From Bdellovibrionota bacterium (GTDB lineage Bacteria; Bdellovibrionota; UBA2428): a stretch of DNA of 64,000 nt. A model generated the notes under the pieces. The model did not search any database and was not told the DNA's origin. It was given only the letters and a program-made list of their open reading frames with translations. Positions 16,725-28,511 of the stretch are shown here, piece after piece. The stretch spans positions 35,131 to 99,130 of the forward strand of contig JBGSZX010000063.1 of NCBI GenBank assembly GCA_041750195.1, given 5' to 3'. Within the stretch, counting starts at the first letter, position 1; each line of letters opens with the position of its first letter. The position numbers were made by a program, and so were the translations under genes.

Positions 16725-18251
16725 ATGAGCATAAATAAAAAAATCACCGAATCACGACATATCTCTAGGAAGCAGTTTCTTCAGGGACTTGGAACAACTT
16801 TGGCGCTGCCGCCATTGATTTCTATGATGCCCAAAGCAATGGCAGATGCAGTGGTTGCAAATAAAAAATTGCGACTTTGTTTGCTGGCAAATGAGTATGG
16901 GATGCATAATGACCACCTCGTGCCATCCTCAAGTGCTTCTTCGAATGCGACTCAGACTATAAATAGCATTGGTAGCCAGACTATTCCCACTATAAAGGCA
17001 ACACCGCTAAGCTCTTTCGGTAATCCAGTTTCTTATATTGTTGATAACAAGATGAATGCGCTCAAGGATGACATGAACATTATTTATGGGCTTGATTTGA
17101 TGAGTGCCTATGGCCATAATTTTGGTTTTTATTCCGGATCAATGGGGGGCCGTGATCCTGAATGCGGCAGAAGCATTGATGTTATCATTTCAAATTCTGC
17201 CAAATTCAAATCCGACTTTAAGGGCAAAGTACCCGTTGTCCGTAATACCAACTATGCTTTTGCTGGCGGCTTCTTTTATGATCGAAAGCAAAGTTCTAGC
17301 GGTAATTTTTTACTTGGTGAGGCAAATGTCTTAAATCAGCAAAGAGATGTAAGTGATAAGGCAATCTTTGAAAGGCTATTTGGCGGTGGTACTGTAGCTC
17401 CCCCATTGAGTGCGGATATGACTCGGCGTAAACTTCTCATTGATCTTGTGAAAGATGATTACACTGCTCTTCGGGATAGTCATAGAATATCTGGAGCGGA
17501 CAAACAGTTGCTTCTTCAGTTTGCAGAATCTATTTTTCAAGTCCAAAAAAATCTTGATAAAACATCACCTAGTTGTACGGCTCAGGCGCCTTCTAGTTTT
17601 GCTTCTCCGACTGGAGCTTGGCCTGCAGATTGGAATGGATATTGGAAAAATATTTCTGAAATGATGATCCTAGCTTTTCAGTGTGATGTTAGCCGTATTT
17701 ATTGCACAAGTCCGTATAATGGGGATCAGCATCACCAAGTTGATGATTCGGCGGCTGCTTATTGGGGTTCAAAATGGCAAAAAGAATGGATTGACATTAT
17801 GACTCAGCACTTACTTTTAGGTCTTAAAAACACAACAGATCCATTTGGGAATGGAGAGTCATTGCTTGATAACAGCTTGGTTGTTTGGCACAACGAACAT
17901 TCGGGAAGAGCGGGGCACACTCATGAGAGTATTCCCGTTATGACATTTGGAAAGCTTGGGGGAGCCGTAAGGGCTGGCTATTTTATGAATTTTGACCAGA
18001 CAACTCTCAACGCTGCAAAACGTGAAAACAGGGGATACCCCTCTAAGATGATGATGGTTACTATTTTGGAGGCAATGGGCGTTACAAGGGCTGAAATTCT
18101 TAGGGAAGGTGATGGCACAGGATTTGGTTCGTGGCCTGATTACTTGGTTTATGCGAATAGTACCCCAAGTTACTATCTACGCGATCAATACGACCTTAAC
18201 TACTTCGGAACGAGACATAGCAATGCGCTTCCTTTCTTCACTAATATTTAA
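16725..18251 (+). CDS. DUF1552 (HXXSHH)-family protein with Tat-like signal
   Basis: ISRKQFLQGLGTTLALPPL signal, SID..I, FERLF, AFQCDVSR, QHH, LLDNSLVVW..E...HTH...PV; usual partner of DUF1592 proteins. Confidence 0.8.
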   Translation: MSINKKITESRHISRKQFLQGLGTTLALPPLISMMPKAMADAVVANKKLRLCLLANEYGMHNDHLVPSSSASSNATQTINSIGSQTIPTIKATPLSSFGNPVSYIVDNKMNALKDDMNIIYGLDLMSAYGHNFGFYSGSMGGRDPECGRSIDVIISNSAKFKSDFKGKVPVVRNTNYAFAGGFFYDRKQSSSGNFLLGEANVLNQQRDVSDKAIFERLFGGGTVAPPLSADMTRRKLLIDLVKDDYTALRDSHRISGADKQLLLQFAESIFQVQKNLDKTSPSCTAQAPSSFASPTGAWPADWNGYWKNISEMMILAFQCDVSRIYCTSPYNGDQHHQVDDSAAAYWGSKWQKEWIDIMTQHLLLGLKNTTDPFGNGESLLDNSLVVWHNEHSGRAGHTHESIPVMTFGKLGGAVRAGYFMNFDQTTLNAAKRENRGYPSKMMMVTILEAMGVTRAEILREGDGTGFGSWPDYLVYANSTPSYYLRDQYDLNYFGTRHSNALPFFTNI

Positions 18252-18845: not shown

Positions 18846-18873
18846 TCAAGTTTATTTGTTTGGATGCCGATAG
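18846..18873 (+). promoter_or_regulatory. sigma28-type promoter upstream of the Flp/Tad cluster
   Basis: TCAAGTTT...GCCGATAG (TCAA-N16-GCCGATAG), 30 nt before the first pilin ATG. Confidence 0.65.
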
Positions 18874-18903
18874 GCAGTGAGAAAGAGAAAGGGCTTATTG
18901 ATT

Positions 18904-19089
18904 ATGCGCACTCGTGAACTAAAAAATTCTAAAAAAGGCCAAACATCTGTGGAGTATATTCTTATTCTTGCATTGCTAGTGGGAGTCATTGCACTTTTCG
19001 GCGGTCAGTTCAAAGAAAAGATTCAACAGGTTGTTGGCAGTTTGTTTGACAACGTAAATAGTGGAATCTCTGACCTTAGCGCTCCGTAA
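18904..19089 (+). CDS. flp: Flp-type pilin
   Basis: Class III signal KKG/QTSVEY followed by a hydrophobic helix; about 61 aa. Confidence 0.85.
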   Translation: MRTRELKNSKKGQTSVEYILILALLVGVIALFGGQFKEKIQQVVGSLFDNVNSGISDLSAP

Positions 19090-19149
19090 TTTTACTGGAG
19101 TTTTGTAGGTCGTGCTTCTGGTTTGCTTTTGAGAGCTTGAGGAGCCGTT

Positions 19150-19362
19150 ATGACTTTCAAAACAAAAAGAATAAAAAAATTAAAAGGCCAGGCCCTTCTT
19201 GAGTATGTACTCTTGATGGCTGGCCTTTCTATCGTTGCGGCGGCCTTTGTTTCTTTTATGGGAGGCGTTGTTTTTAAGACAGGCTTTGAACAACTGCCGT
19301 CAAAAATGGCTCCATGCTTATCGCATCAAGCTGGATCAGGCGGAGGAGGCACATGTCAGTAA
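19150..19362 (+). CDS. Flp-like pilin
   Basis: KG/QALLEY plus hydrophobic helix. Confidence 0.8.
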   Translation: MTFKTKRIKKLKGQALLEYVLLMAGLSIVAAAFVSFMGGVVFKTGFEQLPSKMAPCLSHQAGSGGGGTCQ

Positions 19363-19649
19363 AAATAAATGCCGCAATAAATCCCGCAATAAATGGCTCA
19401 GACCAATTAGATAAACTCGGTAGTAAACAGGGCCAGACGGCTGTCGAGGTTATTTTAATGATTGCCTTTGTGGCGGGCATCATGACTTTTATTACTCCTA
19501 TCTTAGATACAAAAATTACAGAAGTTGTGGGCAAGGTCGTAGGCGCAGTTAACACCGTCGGTTGGACCGGAGGCTATGCACCAATTTCTCCGGAAAAGCC
19601 CCTGGCCGCACATTATGACGGCAGCAAAGCTGCCATGGGTACAAAATAA
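19353..19649 (+). CDS. Flp-like/minor pilin
   Basis: QG/QTAVEV plus hydrophobic helix; GGAGG SD upstream of the ATG at 19353. Confidence 0.75.
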   Translation: MSVKINAAINPAINGSDQLDKLGSKQGQTAVEVILMIAFVAGIMTFITPILDTKITEVVGKVVGAVNTVGWTGGYAPISPEKPLAAHYDGSKAAMGTK

Positions 19650-19674
19650 AGTAGGAAAGATTTCGATAAAAAAA

Positions 19675-20226
19675 ATGAAAACGCTCAGTAAAAAGAATCG
19701 GAATAAAAAGAAAGGCCAAGGGGTTATTGAATTCGCCTTTGTTTCATTTATCTTTCTAAATTTATTTTTATTAACTTTGAATGGCATTTTAGCTTTTAGC
19801 GTTCATCAATACATTTCATTTGCAACTTTTATGGCCGCCAGGGCTTATCAGGCTTCTGACTCTACTGTTCAAGATCAAAGTCAAAATGCACAGGATACCA
19901 TTAAGTCTTATTTCAACCTTCCTGGCATTCGAAAAGAAATGGCCAGAATAAAAAGTATAGAGATTCCCGATGGAAGCAGGCCAACAAAACATGGATATAA
20001 AGTGCCTGAGCCAGGCGCACAAATTCGAGTTGTGTTTGAAGTGCCGCTATTTCAGTTTCCACTGGGTCCTGCGAGTAGAGACTATGGCTGGATAACAATG
20101 GAAAGTATTAGCTATTTGGGGCGCGAGCCAACAGTCCGAGAATGCGGCACCTTCTTTGAGGCTTTCTGGAAATATTATGGGGGAGGGGGCGACACATGGA
20201 AAGGCATGGACGACAACAATTGTTAG
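19675..20226 (+). CDS. TadE-like pseudopilin
   Basis: KKG/QGVIEF, TM helix, FATFMAARAY TadE-type motif. Confidence 0.8.
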   Translation: MKTLSKKNRNKKKGQGVIEFAFVSFIFLNLFLLTLNGILAFSVHQYISFATFMAARAYQASDSTVQDQSQNAQDTIKSYFNLPGIRKEMARIKSIEIPDGSRPTKHGYKVPEPGAQIRVVFEVPLFQFPLGPASRDYGWITMESISYLGREPTVRECGTFFEAFWKYYGGGGDTWKGMDDNNC

Positions 20227-20699
20227 CGCCTCAGTTTTCAAAAAAAAGTTTGTCGAAAAAATGGCAACGCAAAAAAGGCCAGTCCCTTGTTGAGCTTTTG
20301 CCTGCCATCGTTCTTTTTTTTACGGTCCTCGTAGGAGCCTTTTCCTATTTCAAAGTCATGCGCTCTGCCGTTGTAAGACAAGAAGTTGTGCGAAACATGG
20401 CCTTTGCGGCCATTGGAAATATGGGTAGTTTGACGACTCCGCCCGATCAACTAAGTTCCGCTAAAGGAGATCCCTTGGAATCTGGCCCCTCACTTAGGGG
20501 CTTAGGGGGCGAAAGATTTATTTCGAGTAGCAACCAGGTTTTTGTTGGGGGGGCAACGCGCTGCTTTAGGTTGTATCCTAGGGACACCACCATTTCATTG
20601 TCGACTCCGCTGCCTTCATTCTTCCAGGACAGCCCTCCGCAGGTCCAATTTTCGACCTATGCTGTTGTGCAGCGACTACCGGACGGAGACTGCAACTAA
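20196..20699 (+). CDS. TadE-like pseudopilin (start uncertain)
   Basis: KKG/QSLVEL plus TM helix. Confidence 0.75.
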   Translation: MERHGRQQLLAPQFSKKSLSKKWQRKKGQSLVELLPAIVLFFTVLVGAFSYFKVMRSAVVRQEVVRNMAFAAIGNMGSLTTPPDQLSSAKGDPLESGPSLRGLGGERFISSSNQVFVGGATRCFRLYPRDTTISLSTPLPSFFQDSPPQVQFSTYAVVQRLPDGDCN

Positions 20700-20703
20700 A
20701 GCG

Positions 20704-20731
20704 TTAAGATTTCAATAACTTTTTCCGATAG
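20704..20731 (+). promoter_or_regulatory. Second sigma28-like promoter, upstream of cpaB
   Basis: TTAAG-N15-TCCGATAG, same spacing as the site at 18846. Confidence 0.5.
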
Positions 20732-20754
20732 GAAACATTGGAGACCGATGATTT

Positions 20755-21651
20755 ATGAACCAGTCTAAAGCATTTTTGATTAGCTTCTTTGCGGCCGCTG
20801 TAGCCATGCTTCTTGTGTTTGTTTACATCAACAACGTAAAAAAAGAAGTAACCGCTCAGTATGGTACAGAAGTTGTCGTGGTTACGGCATCTCGAGATAT
20901 CAATGAGCTTGAAGAGATTCAGGCAGATATGCTCACAACAACCACTATTCCAAAAAACTTTGCCCAACCTGATTCTCATGGAGACATTAAAACATTTGAA
21001 GGTTCTGTGGCCGCTTCTCCCATTAAGCTTGGGGAACAAGTCTTGTTGACCAAGGTTCTCTTAAAGGGAGCCCATACTGGAATTTCTTCACAGGTTGCGA
21101 TTCATCATCGAGCCATTTCTATTCCTGTTAACAATGTCACTGGCGTGACTCGCCTTTTGCGGCCGGGTGATCGTGTTGATATCATCGCTAACGTAGAATA
21201 TCCTTCGCCAGATGGAGTCCAAAAAGAAGTTAAGACTTTGCTCCAAAACGTTCATGTCTTAGCTGTTGGTGAACAAATCCAAAATAATATTCCAGAGGCA
21301 TTTCAAATTGATCCTGTGTCGGGAAACCGAAAGGCCATTAATTTAAAAGGCGATCGAACTTATAATACGGTTACTATCGAAGTGAGTCCTCCCGATGCGC
21401 AAAAAACAATTTTTGTTATTGAGTCAGGAGCGCAACTTTTTCTAACGTTAAGAAATCCAGTAGACCGCTTGGTGTCCTCTGTTCCGACGACAACTGTCGA
21501 TGAAGTACTTGGGGATAACTCTAGAAAAGCTGCTCTAGAAGCTGCAAAAAATAGAATTCCAGCAGCAAGACCAGTTCCAAAGCCCGCTCCCGTGAAAGTA
21601 ATTCCAAAAACTTCTGCGTTTGGCAAAGGGGGAATTCCAATTGCGAACTAA
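20755..21651 (+). CDS. cpaB: Flp pilus assembly protein CpaB/RcpC
   Basis: SAF-like VVVTASRDI; RAISIPV..VTGV..LLRPGDRVDII; LLQNVHVLAV; VTIEVSP. Confidence 0.92.
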   Translation: MNQSKAFLISFFAAAVAMLLVFVYINNVKKEVTAQYGTEVVVVTASRDINELEEIQADMLTTTTIPKNFAQPDSHGDIKTFEGSVAASPIKLGEQVLLTKVLLKGAHTGISSQVAIHHRAISIPVNNVTGVTRLLRPGDRVDIIANVEYPSPDGVQKEVKTLLQNVHVLAVGEQIQNNIPEAFQIDPVSGNRKAINLKGDRTYNTVTIEVSPPDAQKTIFVIESGAQLFLTLRNPVDRLVSSVPTTTVDEVLGDNSRKAALEAAKNRIPAARPVPKPAPVKVIPKTSAFGKGGIPIAN

Positions 21652-23347
21652 TCAATTTTTTCTAGCAGGACTATTTTTTTTATTTGCAGTCTCTGCGACT
21701 GCGCAGAACGCGGCAAAGCCAGATCCTATTATTATAGATAGCGAAGAGACAGATTTTCTTGGTGGTATCGCAAACACCACTTTGGACCGTTTAACACAAG
21801 AACAGCTCAAAAAAGGTGTCATGAAGCCTTTGTATGGTATCGAAGATATTTTTTTTACACCGGGTTCAGAGTCAATCATCGACGTGACTCAGTATGGCCC
21901 CACTTGTTTGCAGGCATTCCCAGGAGGAATCATTTCTTCTGATGATCCCCCGCGTAAGGCAGGAGATCCACCCAGTGCGAGATCCATCAAAGCAGGAAAT
22001 ACTCTAGGTTCGGCCCAACTTGTAGTTACGCGAGATACCACGGGGAAGGGAAATTGTGCGGTCGAACATGGTGAAATTCTAAAAGTGTTTCGATTTACTG
22101 TGACATCAAGGGATATATTTAAAGCATTGCAAGAGCTAAACGCCTTGGTGGGCAGTGTAGAGGGGCTCGAAATCCGAGTTGTTGGTGATCGCATTGTCTT
22201 AGATGGCAAAATTGTTGTTCCTTCTGAATTGGATCGTCTGCAAACAGTGGTAAAAAATTTCAATGCAGGAAAACCCGACAACGCCAAGATTGATATCTTG
22301 AGTCTCTATGAAATGTCGCCCTTAGCTTTTAAGCTCATAGCGGACAAAATGGAAGAAGAAATCGCAGGGGGTCCTGATCGACCAAGAGATATTACTGTTC
22401 GTGCGCTCAATGGCAGATTCTTTTTAGAGGGATCGGTAGACCAGCGCTCTGATAGGCAACGAGCCTTAAAAGTTTGTAGAGCTTATTTGCAGCAACGGTT
22501 GATTCGAGAAGTTGAGGGAATCTTAAAGCCCGCTGATACAGATCAAGGTGATGACCCTACGGCTCTAAAAATGTGTAACAATTCTATTTGGATTCGGCAG
22601 GGTCAACCTAAAGAGCCGTATCCCGTTATCTCTATTCGGGCAGATTTTGTAACGATGAATCGAGACTACTTTAAGGAGTTTGAATTTTTTTGGAGACCCA
22701 CATTGGCGGCTGAAGGGGATGTGAATTATCGTTCAGATCTGGGACAGTTTACCACTGGTTTCTTGGGAACAATAAGAAGACTGTTTCCGGTTCTAAGAAA
22801 AGCAGCAAATCATGGATACGGGAGAGTTCTAAAATCAGCAACTGTTATTTTGGTCGACAATCCTGATGCAAGTGGAAAGCCACCATCGGCAAAAATTTCT
22901 GAAACACTTAAAATTCCATTTGTTAGCGGCCAAACCGAAAATGGCCAGCCGACCTTTTCGGAATCTCAAATTACGACAACATTGAACGTGCTTGCTAAGA
23001 CGGTTCCTGGCTCCGATAAAATTGAAATGAGTGTCGTCGCCGAGTTAACTCAAAACTTAGGCGGCACTCCTGCAAAAACACTTAGCAATACGGTCGACAC
23101 GAGTCTTGTCGTTACTAATGGAGAGAGCGCTGCTTTGGGCGGCATTATTGGAGATTCAAAATCGGTGAGATACGATCGCTCACCTGGTTCGCAAAAAGAC
23201 GGAAACTTTGAAATCTTTGGCCTCGGCCGAGGACATTCTATGGAAGATACAAAAAGCCAATTTTTGGTTTTTATCACACCTGTTAAAATGAAAAATCCAG
23301 GTCAAGGCACCACTGAATTGAAAAGAAAGTTTAGGTTGAGAAAATAA
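21620..23347 (+). CDS. Tad secretin-like protein (CpaC/RcpA type) with BON-like domains; true start possibly 21641
   Basis: Signal peptide, IVLDGKI and FFLEGSV BON-like segments, C-terminal GESAALGGII...FLVFITP secretin motif; position between cpaB and the ATPase. Confidence 0.75.
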   Translation: MAKGEFQLRTNQFFLAGLFFLFAVSATAQNAAKPDPIIIDSEETDFLGGIANTTLDRLTQEQLKKGVMKPLYGIEDIFFTPGSESIIDVTQYGPTCLQAFPGGIISSDDPPRKAGDPPSARSIKAGNTLGSAQLVVTRDTTGKGNCAVEHGEILKVFRFTVTSRDIFKALQELNALVGSVEGLEIRVVGDRIVLDGKIVVPSELDRLQTVVKNFNAGKPDNAKIDILSLYEMSPLAFKLIADKMEEEIAGGPDRPRDITVRALNGRFFLEGSVDQRSDRQRALKVCRAYLQQRLIREVEGILKPADTDQGDDPTALKMCNNSIWIRQGQPKEPYPVISIRADFVTMNRDYFKEFEFFWRPTLAAEGDVNYRSDLGQFTTGFLGTIRRLFPVLRKAANHGYGRVLKSATVILVDNPDASGKPPSAKISETLKIPFVSGQTENGQPTFSESQITTTLNVLAKTVPGSDKIEMSVVAELTQNLGGTPAKTLSNTVDTSLVVTNGESAALGGIIGDSKSVRYDRSPGSQKDGNFEIFGLGRGHSMEDTKSQFLVFITPVKMKNPGQGTTELKRKFRLRK

Positions 23348-23348
23348 A

Positions 23349-25565
23349 ATGAGTCAGTCTAGACCTGTGGGAGCTTCTGGAACCCGAGCAGACATCACTC
23401 AGATGGCGTCTAGCACGGGATTTATTGTGGCTGTTATTGGCGGAAAAGGTGGCATTGGAAAATCGGTCTTTGCTGCGAATTTAGCTGTGGCGATGGCCAT
23501 GGATTCAAAAAAAGGTCCGTTGATAATGGACTGTGATCCAAATTCCTCTGGCGATATCAATCTTATTTTAGGGGTTAAGCAACCTAAGGCTTATGGCGAT
23601 TTGATTCTAGAAGGTAAAGTTCCTGATTCTAGACGATTGCTTGCCATGGTGAGTCCGGTGAACACCGGAAATCCTCAGACGCCTTTGTATGCTTTGCAAA
23701 TGCTCTCTAATCCTGAAGCTCTTCTGAATATTGATACCGAAAAATTTGATTTAGCGCTGAATCTTATTCAAAAAACTTTTCCTATAACCATAATAGATTG
23801 TGGAAATGATTTAACTGAAGGCACCATGAAGATTCTGGATCATGCCACCTTAATATTAGTGCCAACAAATCCTGATATTCTTGTTCTCAACCAGACACGA
23901 AAACTCATTGATAAAATTCAAAGCAATTTATTTCCACAAGAAATTACAAAAATTATTGTAAATAGATTTCCGGCTAATAGTATGTACAATCCAAAATTTA
24001 TTGAGCAAAGTCTCAAAAGACAGGTCTTTGGGGTGATTCCCGAAGATCCAGCTAGTGCCTCATCTGCCTTAGCAAAAGGAGCTCCTTACGTATTGATGTC
24101 TCCAGGATCGGCAGCATCGAAAGCGGTCGCAACATTGAGCCGATTCATTGTTGATCGTAGAGTTTTGGAGCAACTTGCTAGAACTCAAAAGCCAACACGG
24201 TCCAAGCCAGTAGCTGAGGCACCTAGCGCGGACAAAGATGGAAATGTTATTCCTTTAAATAAGGACATCGGAAAAGGCGTGAGCGATCCTCGTAGTGCTT
24301 TTAAGCTGCGAGTCCACGCACAGCTTGTCGAAAAAATGGATTTAAAAAAGGAAGAGTTAGATAGAAATCTTTCGGAAGAAAAAAAATTAGAACTACGATC
24401 CAAGGCTCAGTCAATAGTTGCGGAAGTTCTGAACAACGAAACGCATCCTTGGAAAGCCCGAGAAGAGAGTGCTCAGTTAATGAAAGAAATCCTAGATGAG
24501 GCTTTGGCCTTGGGCCCCTTAGAAGATTATTTAGCAGATAAAGACATTTCTGAAATTATGGTTTGTCGGGCCGATCTCACTTACATCGAGAAGAATGGGC
24601 GCATTCAAAAAGCCAAAACAAATTTTTCGAGCAATGTTCAACTTCGACAAGTCATTGAGCGAATTGTAAACCCCATTGGAAGACGTATCGACGAAAAAAG
24701 TCCTTATGTCGATGCGCGACTTGCAGATGGCTCGCGTGTTCATGCGATCATTCCTCCGTTAGCTATTGATGGCCCGATGCTTACAATTCGTAAGTTTCCA
24801 AGCAAAAGATTGGGCCCCGAAGATCTCATTAAATTTGGATCGATGAGCCCAGAAATGTCAGCCTTTTTACGAGCTGCTGTTGAGACTCATTCTAATATTC
24901 TCATTAGCGGTGGTACGGGTTCTGGTAAAACAACTTTACTCAACGTGATGTCTAGCTTTATTCCGGCCAATGAAAGAATTTTAACGGTAGAAGATTCGGC
25001 TGAACTTCAAATGCAACAGGAACATGTGGGACGATTAGAATCTCGTCCTGCTAACATAGAGGGCACGGGTGCTGTGAGCATTCGAGATCTTGTGAAGCAG
25101 ACTCTGCGCATGAGGCCTGACCGAATTGTTATTGGTGAGGTGCGCGGCGGAGAAGCCTTGGATATGTTGCAAGCTATGAATACGGGTCATGATGGCTCGA
25201 TGGCTACGGTTCACTCGAACAATCCACGAGATGCGATGGCGAGGCTTGAAACTCTGGTCATGATGGCTGGCATGGATTTACCGGTCGAAGCTATTCGACA
25301 ACAAATCGCGGGAGCCGTTCATTTGGTCGTGCAGCAGTCTCGACTTTCGGATGGGTCTCGGAAAGTCACTCATATTACAGAAATTACGGGAATGCAGGGT
25401 GATGTGATTACCATGCAAGATATTTTTATTTTTAAAAAAGAAGGCATCGACAAAAATCGAAAAGTGATTGGACGCCACATGGCGACTGGATTTATGCCTA
25501 AGATGGTTGAAAAAATGGAAGCGTTGGGCATCAAGCTACCCAAGGGGATCTTTAAAGCAGCATGA
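23349..25565 (+). CDS. tadA: Fused CpaE(TadZ, MinD/ParA-like)-CpaF(TadA) pilus assembly ATPase
   Basis: N-terminal deviant Walker A GGKGGIGKS; C-terminal GGTGSGKTT, LRMRPDRIVIGEVRG, AMNTGHDGSMATVH. Confidence 0.93.
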   Translation: MSQSRPVGASGTRADITQMASSTGFIVAVIGGKGGIGKSVFAANLAVAMAMDSKKGPLIMDCDPNSSGDINLILGVKQPKAYGDLILEGKVPDSRRLLAMVSPVNTGNPQTPLYALQMLSNPEALLNIDTEKFDLALNLIQKTFPITIIDCGNDLTEGTMKILDHATLILVPTNPDILVLNQTRKLIDKIQSNLFPQEITKIIVNRFPANSMYNPKFIEQSLKRQVFGVIPEDPASASSALAKGAPYVLMSPGSAASKAVATLSRFIVDRRVLEQLARTQKPTRSKPVAEAPSADKDGNVIPLNKDIGKGVSDPRSAFKLRVHAQLVEKMDLKKEELDRNLSEEKKLELRSKAQSIVAEVLNNETHPWKAREESAQLMKEILDEALALGPLEDYLADKDISEIMVCRADLTYIEKNGRIQKAKTNFSSNVQLRQVIERIVNPIGRRIDEKSPYVDARLADGSRVHAIIPPLAIDGPMLTIRKFPSKRLGPEDLIKFGSMSPEMSAFLRAAVETHSNILISGGTGSGKTTLLNVMSSFIPANERILTVEDSAELQMQQEHVGRLESRPANIEGTGAVSIRDLVKQTLRMRPDRIVIGEVRGGEALDMLQAMNTGHDGSMATVHSNNPRDAMARLETLVMMAGMDLPVEAIRQQIAGAVHLVVQQSRLSDGSRKVTHITEITGMQGDVITMQDIFIFKKEGIDKNRKVIGRHMATGFMPKMVEKMEALGIKLPKGIFKAA

Positions 25566-26452
25566 GCCAGATTGTCTCTACCTTTAATCCGCTCGCCGTG
25601 AGCATGGTTAGTGGATTTTTGTTTTTTCTTGCCATTTATTTTTCATTTGAAAAGTTATACCAAAACGTGTGGTCAAAACTAAAGGTAACAAGCAAGCTCA
25701 CCTACGATGTTTACCAGGACATGTTCTATATCAAAAAAACTGAAAAGGGCGTGATCATTCAGCAGTGTATGATTTCAGGTGGATTGGCCGTGCTGGCACT
25801 TTACATGTTTTCTGGATCTCCGATTTTTGCATTGGTGACGGCCGTACTTATTTTTTTTGGAACATGGAAACTTCCGCTAATTTATTTAGAAAAAGTAGTT
25901 AGGCCAAGCAGGACCAAAACATTTTCGGATCAGATGATTGATGGGTTGACTCTGATGGGCAATGCTATGAAATCCGGAATGAACCTTTCGCAGGCCTTCA
26001 AGATATGTGTTGATGAAATGGATGGTCCTCTGGCGCAGGAATTCGGTTTGATTCTAGATAAAAATCGCATTGGTCAAAGCATTGAAGAGGGCTTAGAGGA
26101 TTTGGCTGGAAGATTGCCTTCTGAAGATGTCGTGATGTTCTCGACTAGTGTCAATATTTTGAAAGAAACGGGCGGAAACATGACCGAAACTTTTGGAACG
26201 ATCACCAAGACCATTCGAGAGCGGATCAAGCTTCAAAATAAAATTGATGCTTTGACGGCTCAGGGAATGACTTCTGCCGTTGTTGTTTCGGCCTTGCCAT
26301 GGGCGTTGCTAGGAATTTTATATTTGATCGATCCAAATTTGATGAGGCCCATGCTTGTGACGATTCCTGGATGGATCATTTTATCGATGGTACTTTTTTT
26401 GGAAGGTGTTGGATTTTTTGTGATCAAGAAATTGGTAACCATTAGGGTATAG
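25562..26452 (+). CDS. tadB: TadB (T2SSF-family) inner-membrane platform protein
   Basis: QMIDGL..M...MKSG, ETGGNM, ALTAQG motifs and several TM helices. Confidence 0.9.
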   Translation: MSQIVSTFNPLAVSMVSGFLFFLAIYFSFEKLYQNVWSKLKVTSKLTYDVYQDMFYIKKTEKGVIIQQCMISGGLAVLALYMFSGSPIFALVTAVLIFFGTWKLPLIYLEKVVRPSRTKTFSDQMIDGLTLMGNAMKSGMNLSQAFKICVDEMDGPLAQEFGLILDKNRIGQSIEEGLEDLAGRLPSEDVVMFSTSVNILKETGGNMTETFGTITKTIRERIKLQNKIDALTAQGMTSAVVVSALPWALLGILYLIDPNLMRPMLVTIPGWIILSMVLFLEGVGFFVIKKLVTIRV

Positions 26453-26578
26453 TTCTGGACATGGTGCGCCGCAATATTTTTCAAACATACGAAGATTGAA
26501 TATGGCATGTGAAGTTATTGACGCTGCCATGGAGTCTTTTACTGGTAACATCAAGGAAGTTGTTGGAGGTCTTTTAAT

Positions 26579-28174
26579 ATGGGGAATCGTATTTTTGGTG
26601 TCTTGATCGCGTGGGGCGTGTTTCTAATGACGGCTCCTGCAAGTGCTGGAGTAAACGTCAATAATGGAAATTTCTATGTAGCAAATACGGATTTCTTTTT
26701 GCAGACTTCTGGGCTGAACATTGAAATTGCTCGCACTTATAATAGTCGTTCGAGTTACGTCAATGGATATTTTGGAATTGGGTGGTCTTCAGAGATTGAG
26801 GGCCGTTTAGATGTTGGCGCTAAAAAAATAGATTTTTATGAAGGTGGCGGTGGAAATATTGTTAGCTTCACTAAGTCTAAAGATGGTAGCTGGAATAATT
26901 CTCTTTATGGTCATCAAAGCATTAGCAAAAATAAAAATGGAAATTACTATTTAACGACCGCAATTGGCAAAATTTTTGGATTTAATGCTCAGGGGCAAAT
27001 GATCAGCCTTGCGGATTCAAATGGAAATCTTATCTCAATTAATTATAAAGATGGATTGGTCAGCCTTCTCCAAGACAACTTTAATAATCAGGTTAAATTT
27101 ACTTGGAAAAAGTTTGGTGCAAGACCACGAATTGTTCGCATCGAAAGAGACGCACTTAAGGTGTCTTACAATTACTCTCCCATCGGAAACCTGACCAAAG
27201 CGGTGGGTGTCGATGCTGTTCCTTATAATTATGAATACGATGAAGAACATAACTTAACAAAAATTACCTATGCCAACGGTGATTTCAAAAAAATGAATTA
27301 TGACAAAGCTCGTGACTGGATCACGCAATTCCGTGATCGCACAGGGATGGTGACAGCGTATGATTATTTCGCGGATAGCCTTGATCCAGAAAACAAATTT
27401 GGAACCATTGTTTCTAGGTCTCAAGAGGGATCAAAAAACAGCGAGTTCTCCAAATTTTGGTATGAATTCCGAAAGCGCGCTGACGGAAGTAAGTTTAATT
27501 ATAGAAGTGTCACTTCTATAAATGGCGTTGTTACCGAAACACTTTTTACGGAATGCTGTGGAACTCCCTTGGTTGTTTCTCAGTGGCCAGACAAGGTAAA
27601 AGGAATTTCCAAGCAAAAATTGGATTGGACTGTTGCTCAGTCCAACAAGACCTCAACATATTTTGAATATTATGGAGACGGACTGTTGAAAAAGAAGACT
27701 TCAGCGAACGGCACTGTTACGGCTCTAACTTACGATCCAAAACACAAAAAAGTTGCGAGTGTTCAAAAGGGAAGCCGGAAAATTTCTTATGGCTATGATG
27801 TCAATGGCAATTTAAAAACAGCTTATGATCATTCTGAAAATAGGAATCTTGCCTTGGCCTATGACAAGGATGGACGCATTACAGTTGTCAATGAGTCCGT
27901 AAAAGCAGGTAAAGCTGTTGCGTCGAGACAGGTCTTTTTTAGATATGATGGAAATGGACGCCCTATAGAGATTAAAGAAAAGACCAAAAAAGGTGAAGGC
28001 GTTATTCAAATGAAATATGCTGCCAATGGTGAAGTCATTGGAGTCTACAATGCTAAAGGACGAGAAATTGCTTCAGAAAAAGATATGGAAACAGCGCGAG
28101 CTGTCACCAATACTTTTCAAAACTTGTTAGAAATTGTACAGCCCGCTGGGGTGACCTTGGGGCCGGAGGGTTGA
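26579..28174 (+). CDS. Secreted YD/RHS-repeat protein (Bd0109-like) without toxin tip
   Basis: Signal peptide; GVNVNNGNF...RTYNSR...FGIGW (DUF6531-like); many YD repeats; TECCGTPL; no DPxG core end. Confidence 0.8.
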   Translation: MGNRIFGVLIAWGVFLMTAPASAGVNVNNGNFYVANTDFFLQTSGLNIEIARTYNSRSSYVNGYFGIGWSSEIEGRLDVGAKKIDFYEGGGGNIVSFTKSKDGSWNNSLYGHQSISKNKNGNYYLTTAIGKIFGFNAQGQMISLADSNGNLISINYKDGLVSLLQDNFNNQVKFTWKKFGARPRIVRIERDALKVSYNYSPIGNLTKAVGVDAVPYNYEYDEEHNLTKITYANGDFKKMNYDKARDWITQFRDRTGMVTAYDYFADSLDPENKFGTIVSRSQEGSKNSEFSKFWYEFRKRADGSKFNYRSVTSINGVVTETLFTECCGTPLVVSQWPDKVKGISKQKLDWTVAQSNKTSTYFEYYGDGLLKKKTSANGTVTALTYDPKHKKVASVQKGSRKISYGYDVNGNLKTAYDHSENRNLALAYDKDGRITVVNESVKAGKAVASRQVFFRYDGNGRPIEIKEKTKKGEGVIQMKYAANGEVIGVYNAKGREIASEKDMETARAVTNTFQNLLEIVQPAGVTLGPEG

Positions 28175-28178
28175 TAAG

Positions 28179-28511
28179 ATGAAAAAGTTCATTTTGTTTA
28201 TTGCGGTTGTAAGTTCAGGATCACTATTGGCACAAACTAATTTTTCGGGCGGGATGTCGTACAACGGCGGAGGTGGAGGCGGAATGCCCCAGGGCTATGC
28301 TGGAGCTGGTGGATATCAAATGCCACAAGGTTCGCTCGCTGCCGTTCAGCCGGGAGCGATTCAGGTCCCTCCTCGAGGCGTTGGTGAGCAGCAAGCCTAT
28401 GCGATGACCCCAAGTATGGGGTGTGGTCCTCGTGGCAGCTATTCTGGAATTGAAGGACCCATTCGTGGTGGCGTTGCTATAGATCCGTCTGGACAAGATC
28501 AGCATAGATAG
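28179..28511 (+). CDS. Small secreted Gly/Pro/Gln-rich, probably disordered protein (positional Bd0108/Hit analogue)
   Basis: Signal peptide MKKFILF...SLLA, low-complexity mature part, 4 nt after the RHS stop. Confidence 0.7.
   Translation: MKKFILFIAVVSSGSLLAQTNFSGGMSYNGGGGGGMPQGYAGAGGYQMPQGSLAAVQPGAIQVPPRGVGEQQAYAMTPSMGCGPRGSYSGIEGPIRGGVAIDPSGQDQHR

Follow-up and report, generated by a model that had tools for sequence, protein, structure and literature searches.

A Tad/Flp pilus operon of a Bdellovibrionota bacterium that probably ends in a lineage-specific counterpart of the Bd0109/Bd0108 pair

It has yet to be understood how Bdellovibrio is made to switch between predatory and prey-independent growth by Bd0108 and Bd0109, and in recent genome comparisons bd0108 is counted as missing from many relatives (PMC11870529). 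This absence is scored because such comparisons search by sequence. The question of what takes the place of bd0108 in these relatives is raised by a stretch of 64,000 nucleotides (nt) of contig JBGSZX010000063.1 from a Bdellovibrionota bacterium (GenBank assembly GCA_041750195.1, genome completeness 94.8%), referred to here as the window. Positions 18846-28511 of the window hold a single Tad/Flp operon, in which all genes in the list of open reading frames (ORFs) are encoded on the + strand, either overlapping or separated by short gaps, and which ends in a gene for a toxin-less RHS/YD protein followed by a small ORF. The initial annotation had likened this arrangement to the hit locus of Bdellovibrio bacteriovorus, with a divergent stand-in for Bd0108. 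Our analysis indicates that the locus is probably a Tad/Flp (type IVc) prey-contact pilus operon that ends in the lineage's own hit pair.

Orthology of the locus and of the RHS protein

The RHS gene and small ORF of locus L117 (genome G135, of another family) were used as stand-in for the Bd0109/Bd0108 pair. The small ORF of L117 (101 amino acids, aa) carries all eight Bd0108 residues that are named in Prehna 2014 (N32, D36, A52, C56, C59, R81, K84 and Q101; PMC4267844). The order cpaB-secretin-cpaE/tadA-tadB-RHS is common to 10/10 compared loci, L117 included, so that the architecture originally proposed is upheld; the RHS gene stands directly after tadB in the window and in all compared loci. 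The RHS proteins of the window and of L117 (G135:C1:97206-98831) are reciprocal best hits, each finding only the other's ORF in G135 and G000, and BLASTP aligns them at 28% identity from the signal peptide to the C-terminal tail (E 6e-59); the tail of the window protein, TFQNLLEIVQPAG, aligns with that of L117. From the shared order and the reciprocal best RHS match, the window locus is the orthologue of the TAD/hit locus bd0109-bd0119 (PMC5430801), and by the same sequence comparison the RHS protein is an orthologue of Bd0109-type proteins, as the reciprocal match called for by the initial annotation bears out. RHS homologues were present in 128/151 genomes sampled across the phylum and in 18/19 other genomes of the window's family, nearly always one per genome and in an open frame of 540-630 aa. 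The named records nearest to the window lineage are metagenome-assembled genomes (MAGs) labelled Bacteriovoracaceae or Bdellovibrionota. The hint that the organism is predatory is thus in keeping with its placement and its Bacteriovoracaceae-labelled neighbours, which fit a predator without being proof of one.

The RHS protein consists of a signal-peptide-like start, an N-terminal DUF6531 region and YD repeats (11 YD/YE dipeptides) that continue to the end, residue 531 falling inside the repeat region. No DPxGL-type autoprotease motif, toxin or other C-terminal domain was found in its 531 residues, of which 508 make up the mature protein. Compared with a canonical Rhs toxin of the type VI secretion system (T6SS) or ABC kind, it lacks the autoprotease-toxin C-terminus, and the product of the downstream gene is exported, unlike a cytoplasmic immunity protein. 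It contains exactly two cysteines, which are adjacent (C326-C327, in TECCGTPL). A search of solved structures with the RHS profile yielded T6SS Rhs proteins and teneurins only, and no Bd0109-type structure; the 'cage' nature of the protein is a hypothesis of Prehna 2014 (PMC4267844). These relatives bear on the idea that an RHS shell carries the peptide through the pilus machine to the prey and has no role in regulating the cell's own pilus. Canonical RHS/Tc proteins do encapsulate cargo, all solved relatives found by sequence are of the two kinds just named, and 'Bd0109 delivering Bd0108' is listed as an option in Prehna 2014 (PMC4267844). Delivery nevertheless appears very unlikely here, as the protein is devoid of an autoproteolysis motif and a C-terminal domain, its ∼500 residues are about half of a T6SS Rhs core (the solved chains have 1065-1879 aa), and the genetics of B. 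bacteriovorus point to the predator's own growth switch (PMC3818213).

A family of small exported proteins behind the RHS gene

The small ORF starts 4 nt past the RHS stop codon and is preceded by GGAGG; its gene appears to be co-transcribed with the RHS gene and is probably translationally coupled to it. Signal peptides and cleavage sites were called, here and below, by eye and by a crude in-house rule. The N-terminus of the product is hydrophobic after Lys-Lys and resembles a signal peptide. The mature part of 92 aa contains 24 Gly (26%), 10 Gln, 9 Pro and a single Cys (C82), and G, P, Q, A, S and M together make up 68% of it; there is one MPQG at residue 36 and another at residue 48. The composition thus agrees with the earlier description of a Gly/Pro/Gln-rich signal-peptide protein with two MPQG repeats and one Cys. 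In G001 (57% identity), G005 and G012 a homologue is found between the RHS gene, which it directly follows, and rsmD-coaD, and G013 holds a fourth, in frame and at the same position. This in-frame conservation at the same position in G001, G005, G013 and G012 shows that the small ORF is a real gene and not a chance frame. The identity among the relatives falls to 39% with the position kept. Judged from these sequences, conservation is shown for the position of the ORF and, inside the window's own family-level lineage, for its sequence; the predicted synteny in relatives therefore holds. A peptide match in G029 (E 0.0058, one internal stop) was treated as chance.

A profile of nine mature peptide sequences (A4) was searched against 1.84 billion representative proteins at E ≤0.001. 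It matched 22 proteins, 20 of which are 84-123 aa long and share a signal peptide, a Gly/Pro/Gln/Met-rich stretch and a core; the two others, long and repetitive, were taken as composition artefacts. The core reads [VMP]GE[QH]xAY, 5-9 residues, one Cys, often PRG, then NG, with a His at most 4 residues from the end. By these sequence matches the small protein is a member of a small lineage-specific family. No Pfam or NCBIfam family matched it, a word-based query of 5.8 billion proteins returned only the peptide itself among 28 candidates, and the best score of a look-alike search of the Atlas, 0.81, is at chance level. None of the 20 short profile matches resembles the Bd0108 type. Profile-profile comparisons, made with the signal peptides removed among the window, g9, Bd0108 and Bacteriovoracaceae types, all gave P values of 0.09-0.87, no better than reversed controls, and for this reason descent from the ancestor of Bd0108 and replacement cannot be told apart by sequence. 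In B. bacteriovorus, NPGEDPNEA (residues 32-40 of Bd0108) is the conserved portion of a segment in which nuclear magnetic resonance shows a response to Bd0109 (PMC4267844). From its resemblance to this stretch, GVGEQQAYA in the window peptide may be the counterpart. The window contributes a further defined peptide family whose conserved core is open to mutation.

The slot after the RHS gene across the phylum

RHS loci were gathered by genome searches and related-locus searches. In a first set of 119 loci, 111 of them with at least 400 nt downstream, a signal-peptide ORF starts within 200 nt after the RHS gene in 107/111. In an enlarged set, where 171/175 loci had enough downstream sequence, such an ORF was called within 250 nt in 145/171; three of these calls look spurious (L140, L143 and L147), and in four loci, L015, L024, L044 and L048, a real ORF escaped the call. 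One to three small, Cys-bearing signal-peptide ORFs trail the RHS gene in nearly all cases throughout the phylum. The 92 non-redundant first ORFs have a median length of 79.5 aa, and 91 of them have Cys in the mature part. GE is found in 62/92 (30.2 expected from shuffles) and GE followed by Cys within 25 residues in 56/92 (18.3 expected), an excess that is not to be read as a probability since the rows are kin. By these sequences (∼170 loci), the slot behind the Bd0109 orthologue nearly always contains a fast-evolving exported Cys peptide, and 'absent' in the case of bd0108 therefore mostly equals 'unrecognisable'.

The number of genes in the slot varies. Bacteriovoracaceae-labelled loci usually hold two or three tandem small genes, and L117 has a second small signal-peptide ORF ∼500 nt downstream. 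In the Bacteriovoracaceae-labelled loci L052-L116, the second and third tandem ORFs (52-66 aa, 400-1100 nt past the RHS stop) share the motif TECP(M/W)M(R/K)E-x-N-x-R-x-NPKA and have one Cys each. The shared motif sets them apart as a peptide family of their own, well conserved and located next to the hit slot.

Predicted complex of the RHS protein and the peptide

The initial annotation had further proposed that the peptide interacts with the RHS protein. A complex prediction was run with the mature RHS protein (70 aligned rows) and the mature peptide (9 rows). The median score was 0.55, compared with 0.00-0.01 for three controls, and the verdict was weak support. Contacts agreed between runs to at least 23%, and the pLDDT (predicted local distance difference test) of the partner was at least 28, with values of 29-31 in the complex runs. 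The mark set for the score is reached by 116/157 solved complexes and by 2/215 mismatched pairs, counts that are only approximate because in-house alignments were used. The odds of RHS-peptide binding are thus raised a little by the model, in which the pair scored well above the best control (0.01), but binding is not demonstrated. The peptide may be disordered, judging from its composition and from its pLDDT in the complex runs.

Several observations weigh against reading the pair as a counterpart of Bd0109/Bd0108. By the calibration of the tool itself the complex score is weak, and it came without an interface; scores of 0.60 or below are reached by just 18/157 solved complexes, and by both mismatched pairs that pass the mark. 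Similarity to Bd0108 is undetectable (hhalign P 0.86, reversed control 0.83), which agrees with what had been seen before; the same test does not join two peptide subgroups of the window's own family either, the window type and g9 (P 0.097, control 0.28). The peptide has one Cys (residue 82) and not the CXXC of Bd0108 (C56, C59), and a charge-hydropathy plot puts it on the ordered side (H 0.443, boundary 0.413). In 17 loci, mostly of one other family (L141, L148, L150, L151, L154, L155, L157, L163, L164, L166, L170, L171, L175, L176, L177, L179 and L181), the slot holds a Lys/Ala-rich ORF of 60-123 aa without a signal peptide, which means that the slot is conserved and its occupant is not; no small signal-peptide ORF was found after the RHS gene in L161, L165 and L187. 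The Lys/Ala-rich proteins are probably helical, and in the passages of the hit-locus papers cited here no mention of them was found.

A rival reading is that of a lineage-specific secreted low-complexity protein, for instance of the envelope or matrix, which would stand behind the operon by chance, with no functional tie to the RHS protein or the pilus. The lack of detectable Bd0108 homology, the quite different small genes that fill the slot in other families, the weak complex score and the Atlas look-alikes at chance (≤0.81) are what such a protein would give. The placement of its gene argues otherwise: it begins 4 nt behind the RHS stop, after GGAGG, and has kept this position in G001, G005 and G012 despite the drift to 39% identity, and most loci of the phylum have a Cys-bearing signal-peptide ORF behind the RHS gene. 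In addition, the parity of its cysteines tracks the CC state of the RHS protein (see below), and the controls of the complex job scored only 0.00-0.01. We therefore regard an unrelated envelope protein as quite unlikely and prefer the lineage's own hit pair. In such a pair, the RHS protein and the peptide would be exported by Sec to the periplasm, where the small, probably unstructured protein would bind the RHS protein via its conserved core. By analogy with Bd0108/Bd0109, the pair may tune extrusion and retraction of the pilus and so report prey contact to the cell; the function assigned to the window pair is that of Bd0108/Bd0109 by analogy.

Cysteine parity of the two partners

The parity of the cysteines was compared in 128 loci, that is, 158 non-redundant loci minus 27 without a partner call and 3 with a spurious one. 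RHS proteins with the adjacent cysteine pair (CC) have a partner with an odd number of mature cysteines (1, 3, 5 or 7) in 60/60 rows; those without CC have an even-Cys partner (0, 2 or 4) in 61/68 rows. In a FastTree phylogeny of the RHS proteins with Cys masked, the CC rows show at least 14 changes in the Cys number of the partner, none of them to even, and the CC state itself changes at least 9 times. In five well-supported independent contrasts, parity follows the CC state in 3.2 on average, goes the opposite way in 0 and is unchanged in 1.8 (sign test p 0.125-0.5). With only five independent contrasts the association of CC and parity is not significant. The Bdellovibrio-type RHS protein has VF at the CC position and four other cysteines. 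In alignment A2, many lineages have no Cys in the RHS protein other than the adjacent CC pair.

A refinement of the preferred reading, not exclusive of it, is that the peptide's single Cys forms a mixed disulfide with the CC of the RHS protein, as a redox-sensitive covalent latch, and that lineages which lost CC, among them Bdellovibrio with its CXXC Bd0108, turned to self-contained partners with an even number of cysteines. The window pair has the cysteines for it, two in the RHS protein (326-327) and one in the peptide a few residues after the conserved GE core, and the odd parity of all CC rows, kept through at least 14 changes of number, and the even parity of 61/68 non-CC rows would follow from it. 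The five contrasts with their p of 0.125-0.5, however, and the fact that any exported protein can be expected to gain and lose Cys pairwise, argue for caution, as does the count itself: two plus one cysteines make an odd total unless two peptides bind. Moreover, 24/27 loci without a partner call bear a CC RHS protein, many of them with a non-secreted Lys-rich neighbour; the partners in L029, L032 and L072 would count as even if, as may be the case, they are lipoproteins that have a Cys at +1; and the cleavage sites come from the crude rule mentioned above. We consider such a latch rather unlikely. The evolutionary form of the idea, in which the ancestral Bdellovibrionota hit pair was covalent, C326-C327 exchanging a disulfide with C82 of the peptide, and the CXXC of Bd0108 was derived after loss of the pair, is held to be unlikely. 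If the latch were true, the redox state of the periplasm would act on the binding and the release of the peptide and, through these, on the pilus or growth signal. The parity pattern is in any case a testable lead on how the RHS protein and the peptide communicate.

Promoter and regulation

A sigma-28 (FliA)-like promoter candidate precedes flp1, within ∼600 nt of non-coding DNA between the operon and the upstream DUF1552 gene (Table 1). It is a near match to the consensus of sigma-28/FliA promoters. The candidate has 2 mismatches and is the sole match in the window at ≤3 mismatches (1.09 expected by chance); the core occurs twice in the whole genome. The exact core, mismatched variants of which were not searched, is absent from the Tad contigs of G001, G005 and G012. 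The flp1 frame is open from GTG 18877, but the location of the site 31 nt before ATG 18904 suggests that the latter, rather than the GTG, is the start, and ATG 18904 is the likelier of the two. In Bdellovibrio, flp1 promoters are FliA-dependent (PMC5430801); by analogy, the operon may be under the control of the flagellar sigma factor, the site before flp1 possibly driving all of it. A sigma-54 promoter before the small gene was also considered. The pattern TGGCAC-N5-TTGCW with ≤2 mismatches matched 43 times (34.9 expected), with none of the matches well placed before 28179 or 26579, and was rejected for the window. A generic promoter/terminator scan was not enriched (21 vs 20.3 and 10 vs 11.9).

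Relation to known systems

The closest system is Bd0109/Bd0108 of the B. bacteriovorus HD100 hit locus (Capeness 2013, PMC3818213; Prehna 2014, PMC4267844; Avidan 2017, PMC5430801). Like bd0109-bd0119, the window has flp genes, cpaB, a secretin, cpaE-tadA, one tadB, an RHS gene and a small signal-peptide ORF, and like the HD100 locus it is without a TadV-type peptidase; TadV is missing from Bdellovibrio genomes too (Avidan 2017, PMC5430801). The RHS protein resembles Bd0109 in the lack of a toxin domain, the end-to-end alignment and the reciprocal best match, whereas the Bd0109 type has a ∼70-residue insertion after the N-terminal domain, 4 Cys and no adjacent CC, and is only 28% identical. 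The small protein shares with Bd0108 a length of ∼100 aa, export and a GE-containing stretch before a Cys; it is Gly/Gln/Pro-rich and uncharged with one Cys, unlike the charged, polar Bd0108 with CXXC. The locus continues directly with rsmD-coaD, unlike L117 with its second small ORF.

That a partner can be defined by its position has been published before (Crossman 2013, Prehna 2014 and a MAG survey of 2023). In Bacteriovorax/Halobacteriovorax marinus SJ, two small genes with limited hit similarity, BMS0183/0184, occupy the same place (Crossman 2013, PMC3526173), and their products were described as signal-peptide neighbours without significant homology to Bd0108 (Prehna 2014, PMC4267844). 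A Bd0109 homologue, BMS0182, followed by small signal-peptide proteins is thus a published precedent for the window arrangement. The BMS0182-type group, however, has two or three tandem genes of 55-90 aa, many of them with several Cys, where the window has one longer gene; in the loci of this group collected here, the second and third genes share a TECPMM-type motif, and the window peptide belongs to another family. Arrays of secretory genes of 57-133 aa beside Bd0103/Bd0109 homologues were reported in 2023 for Bdellovibrionales MAGs from activated sludge (PMC10469934). They have in common with the window that small signal-peptide genes with weak or no Bd0108 similarity lie by a Bd0109 homologue, and differ in that those bins are Bdellovibrionales with arrays, whereas the window lineage is nearer to Bacteriovoracaceae-labelled records and has a single gene. 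With the Rhs/Tc-BC cocoon proteins (7q97, 8h8a and 8qja) the RHS protein shares YD repeats and an N-terminal DUF6531-type region; it is about half as long, is without PxxxxDPxGL, a C-terminal toxin and a VgrG/PAAR or Tc context, and has a Sec signal peptide. Taken by itself, the locus adds an ordinary example to a system that has been described already. Of the earlier proposal of a new partner family, the peptide family stands (20 short proteins), and the positional idea had already been published (PMC3526173, PMC4267844 and PMC10469934). New here is one more peptide family, for the lineage of which no report was found in the passages covered, supplementary tables lying outside them (S7/S8 of PMC10469934 may overlap).

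Genes of the pilus machine

The features of the locus are listed in Table 1. The five pilins or pseudopilins, cpaB, the secretin, the cpaE-tadA fusion, tadB, the toxin-less RHS gene and the gene for the 110-aa protein were all recovered at the places given by the initial annotation.

Table 1. Features of the Tad/Flp operon and the gene upstream of it, in window coordinates.
Feature	Position	Strand	Basis or remark
DUF1552 (HXXSHH) protein, 508 aa, Tat-like start	16725-18251	+	upstream of operon
Sigma-28 (FliA)-like promoter candidate, TCAAGTTT-N12-GCCGATAG	18846..18873	+	31 nt before flp1 ATG
flp1, Flp-type prepilin	18904..19089	+	Pfam Flp1_like 6.2e-07, Class_IIIsignal 8.3e-06; motif GQTSVEY
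flp2, Flp-type prepilin, 70 aa	19150..19362	+	Class_IIIsignal 0.0043 (weak); motif GQALLEY
flp3, Flp-like prepilin	19314..19649	+	motif GQTAVEV and hydrophobic stretch; no Pfam/NCBIfam match
TadE-like pseudopilin 1	19576..20226	+	Pfam TadE 0.0017, under cut-off; motif GQGVIEF
TadE/TadF-like pseudopilin 2	20196..20699	+	motif GQSLVEL and hydrophobic stretch; no family match
CpaB/RcpC	20755..21651	+	TIGR03177 9.7e-44; RcpC 5.6e-21; SAF 1.6e-07
Secretin (CpaC/RcpA type)	21620..23347	+	PF00263 1.9e-09
CpaE(MinD/ParA)-TadA fusion ATPase, 738 aa	23349..25565	+	T2SSE 1.1e-60; CbiA 4.7e-15; TIGR03819 1.2e-98
TadB-type platform protein, sole one in locus	25562..26452	+	T2SSF 2.5e-18
Bd0109-type secreted toxin-less RHS/YD protein, 531 aa	26579..28174	+	RHS_repeat 9.5e-20; DUF6531 1.7e-12
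Secreted Gly/Gln/Pro-rich protein, 110 aa, in Bd0108 position	28179..28511	+	ORF, junction, composition, syntenic homologues

All five small ORFs at the 5' end, which are three Flp-type and two TadE-type prepilins, carry the signature G-x4-E-[YFVL] of prepilins and, behind it, a hydrophobic stretch. The flp2 product has two C-terminal Cys (residues 56 and 69), the start of flp3 is probably ATG 19353, and TadE-like pseudopilin 1, which tblastn matched at the equivalent place of L117, probably has its true start internally, near 19675. With Flp prepilins, CpaB, a secretin, a TadA ATPase and a platform protein, the components that define a Tad/Flp (type IVc) system are present. A second platform gene (TadC) and an A24/TadV prepilin peptidase were not found in the locus, as the initial annotation had already noted for tadC and the peptidase; the locus has a single T2SSF gene, and the sole A24 peptidase of the genome, an open frame of 277 aa, is on another contig (C43). 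A further single-domain T2SSF gene, TadB/TadC-like, lies on that contig far from the locus (G000:C43:144983-145360); it may represent the TadC that the locus lacks or belong to a second Tad system. Downstream of the small ORF, rsmD and coaD are followed by an aminotransferase gene. In the CpaE-TadA fusion, CbiA covers residues 27-239 at the N-terminus and T2SSE residues 388-664. The fusion is not peculiar to the window: the two parts share a reading frame in 9/10 related loci, L117 included, where sameness of frame was scored and stops between the parts were not checked.

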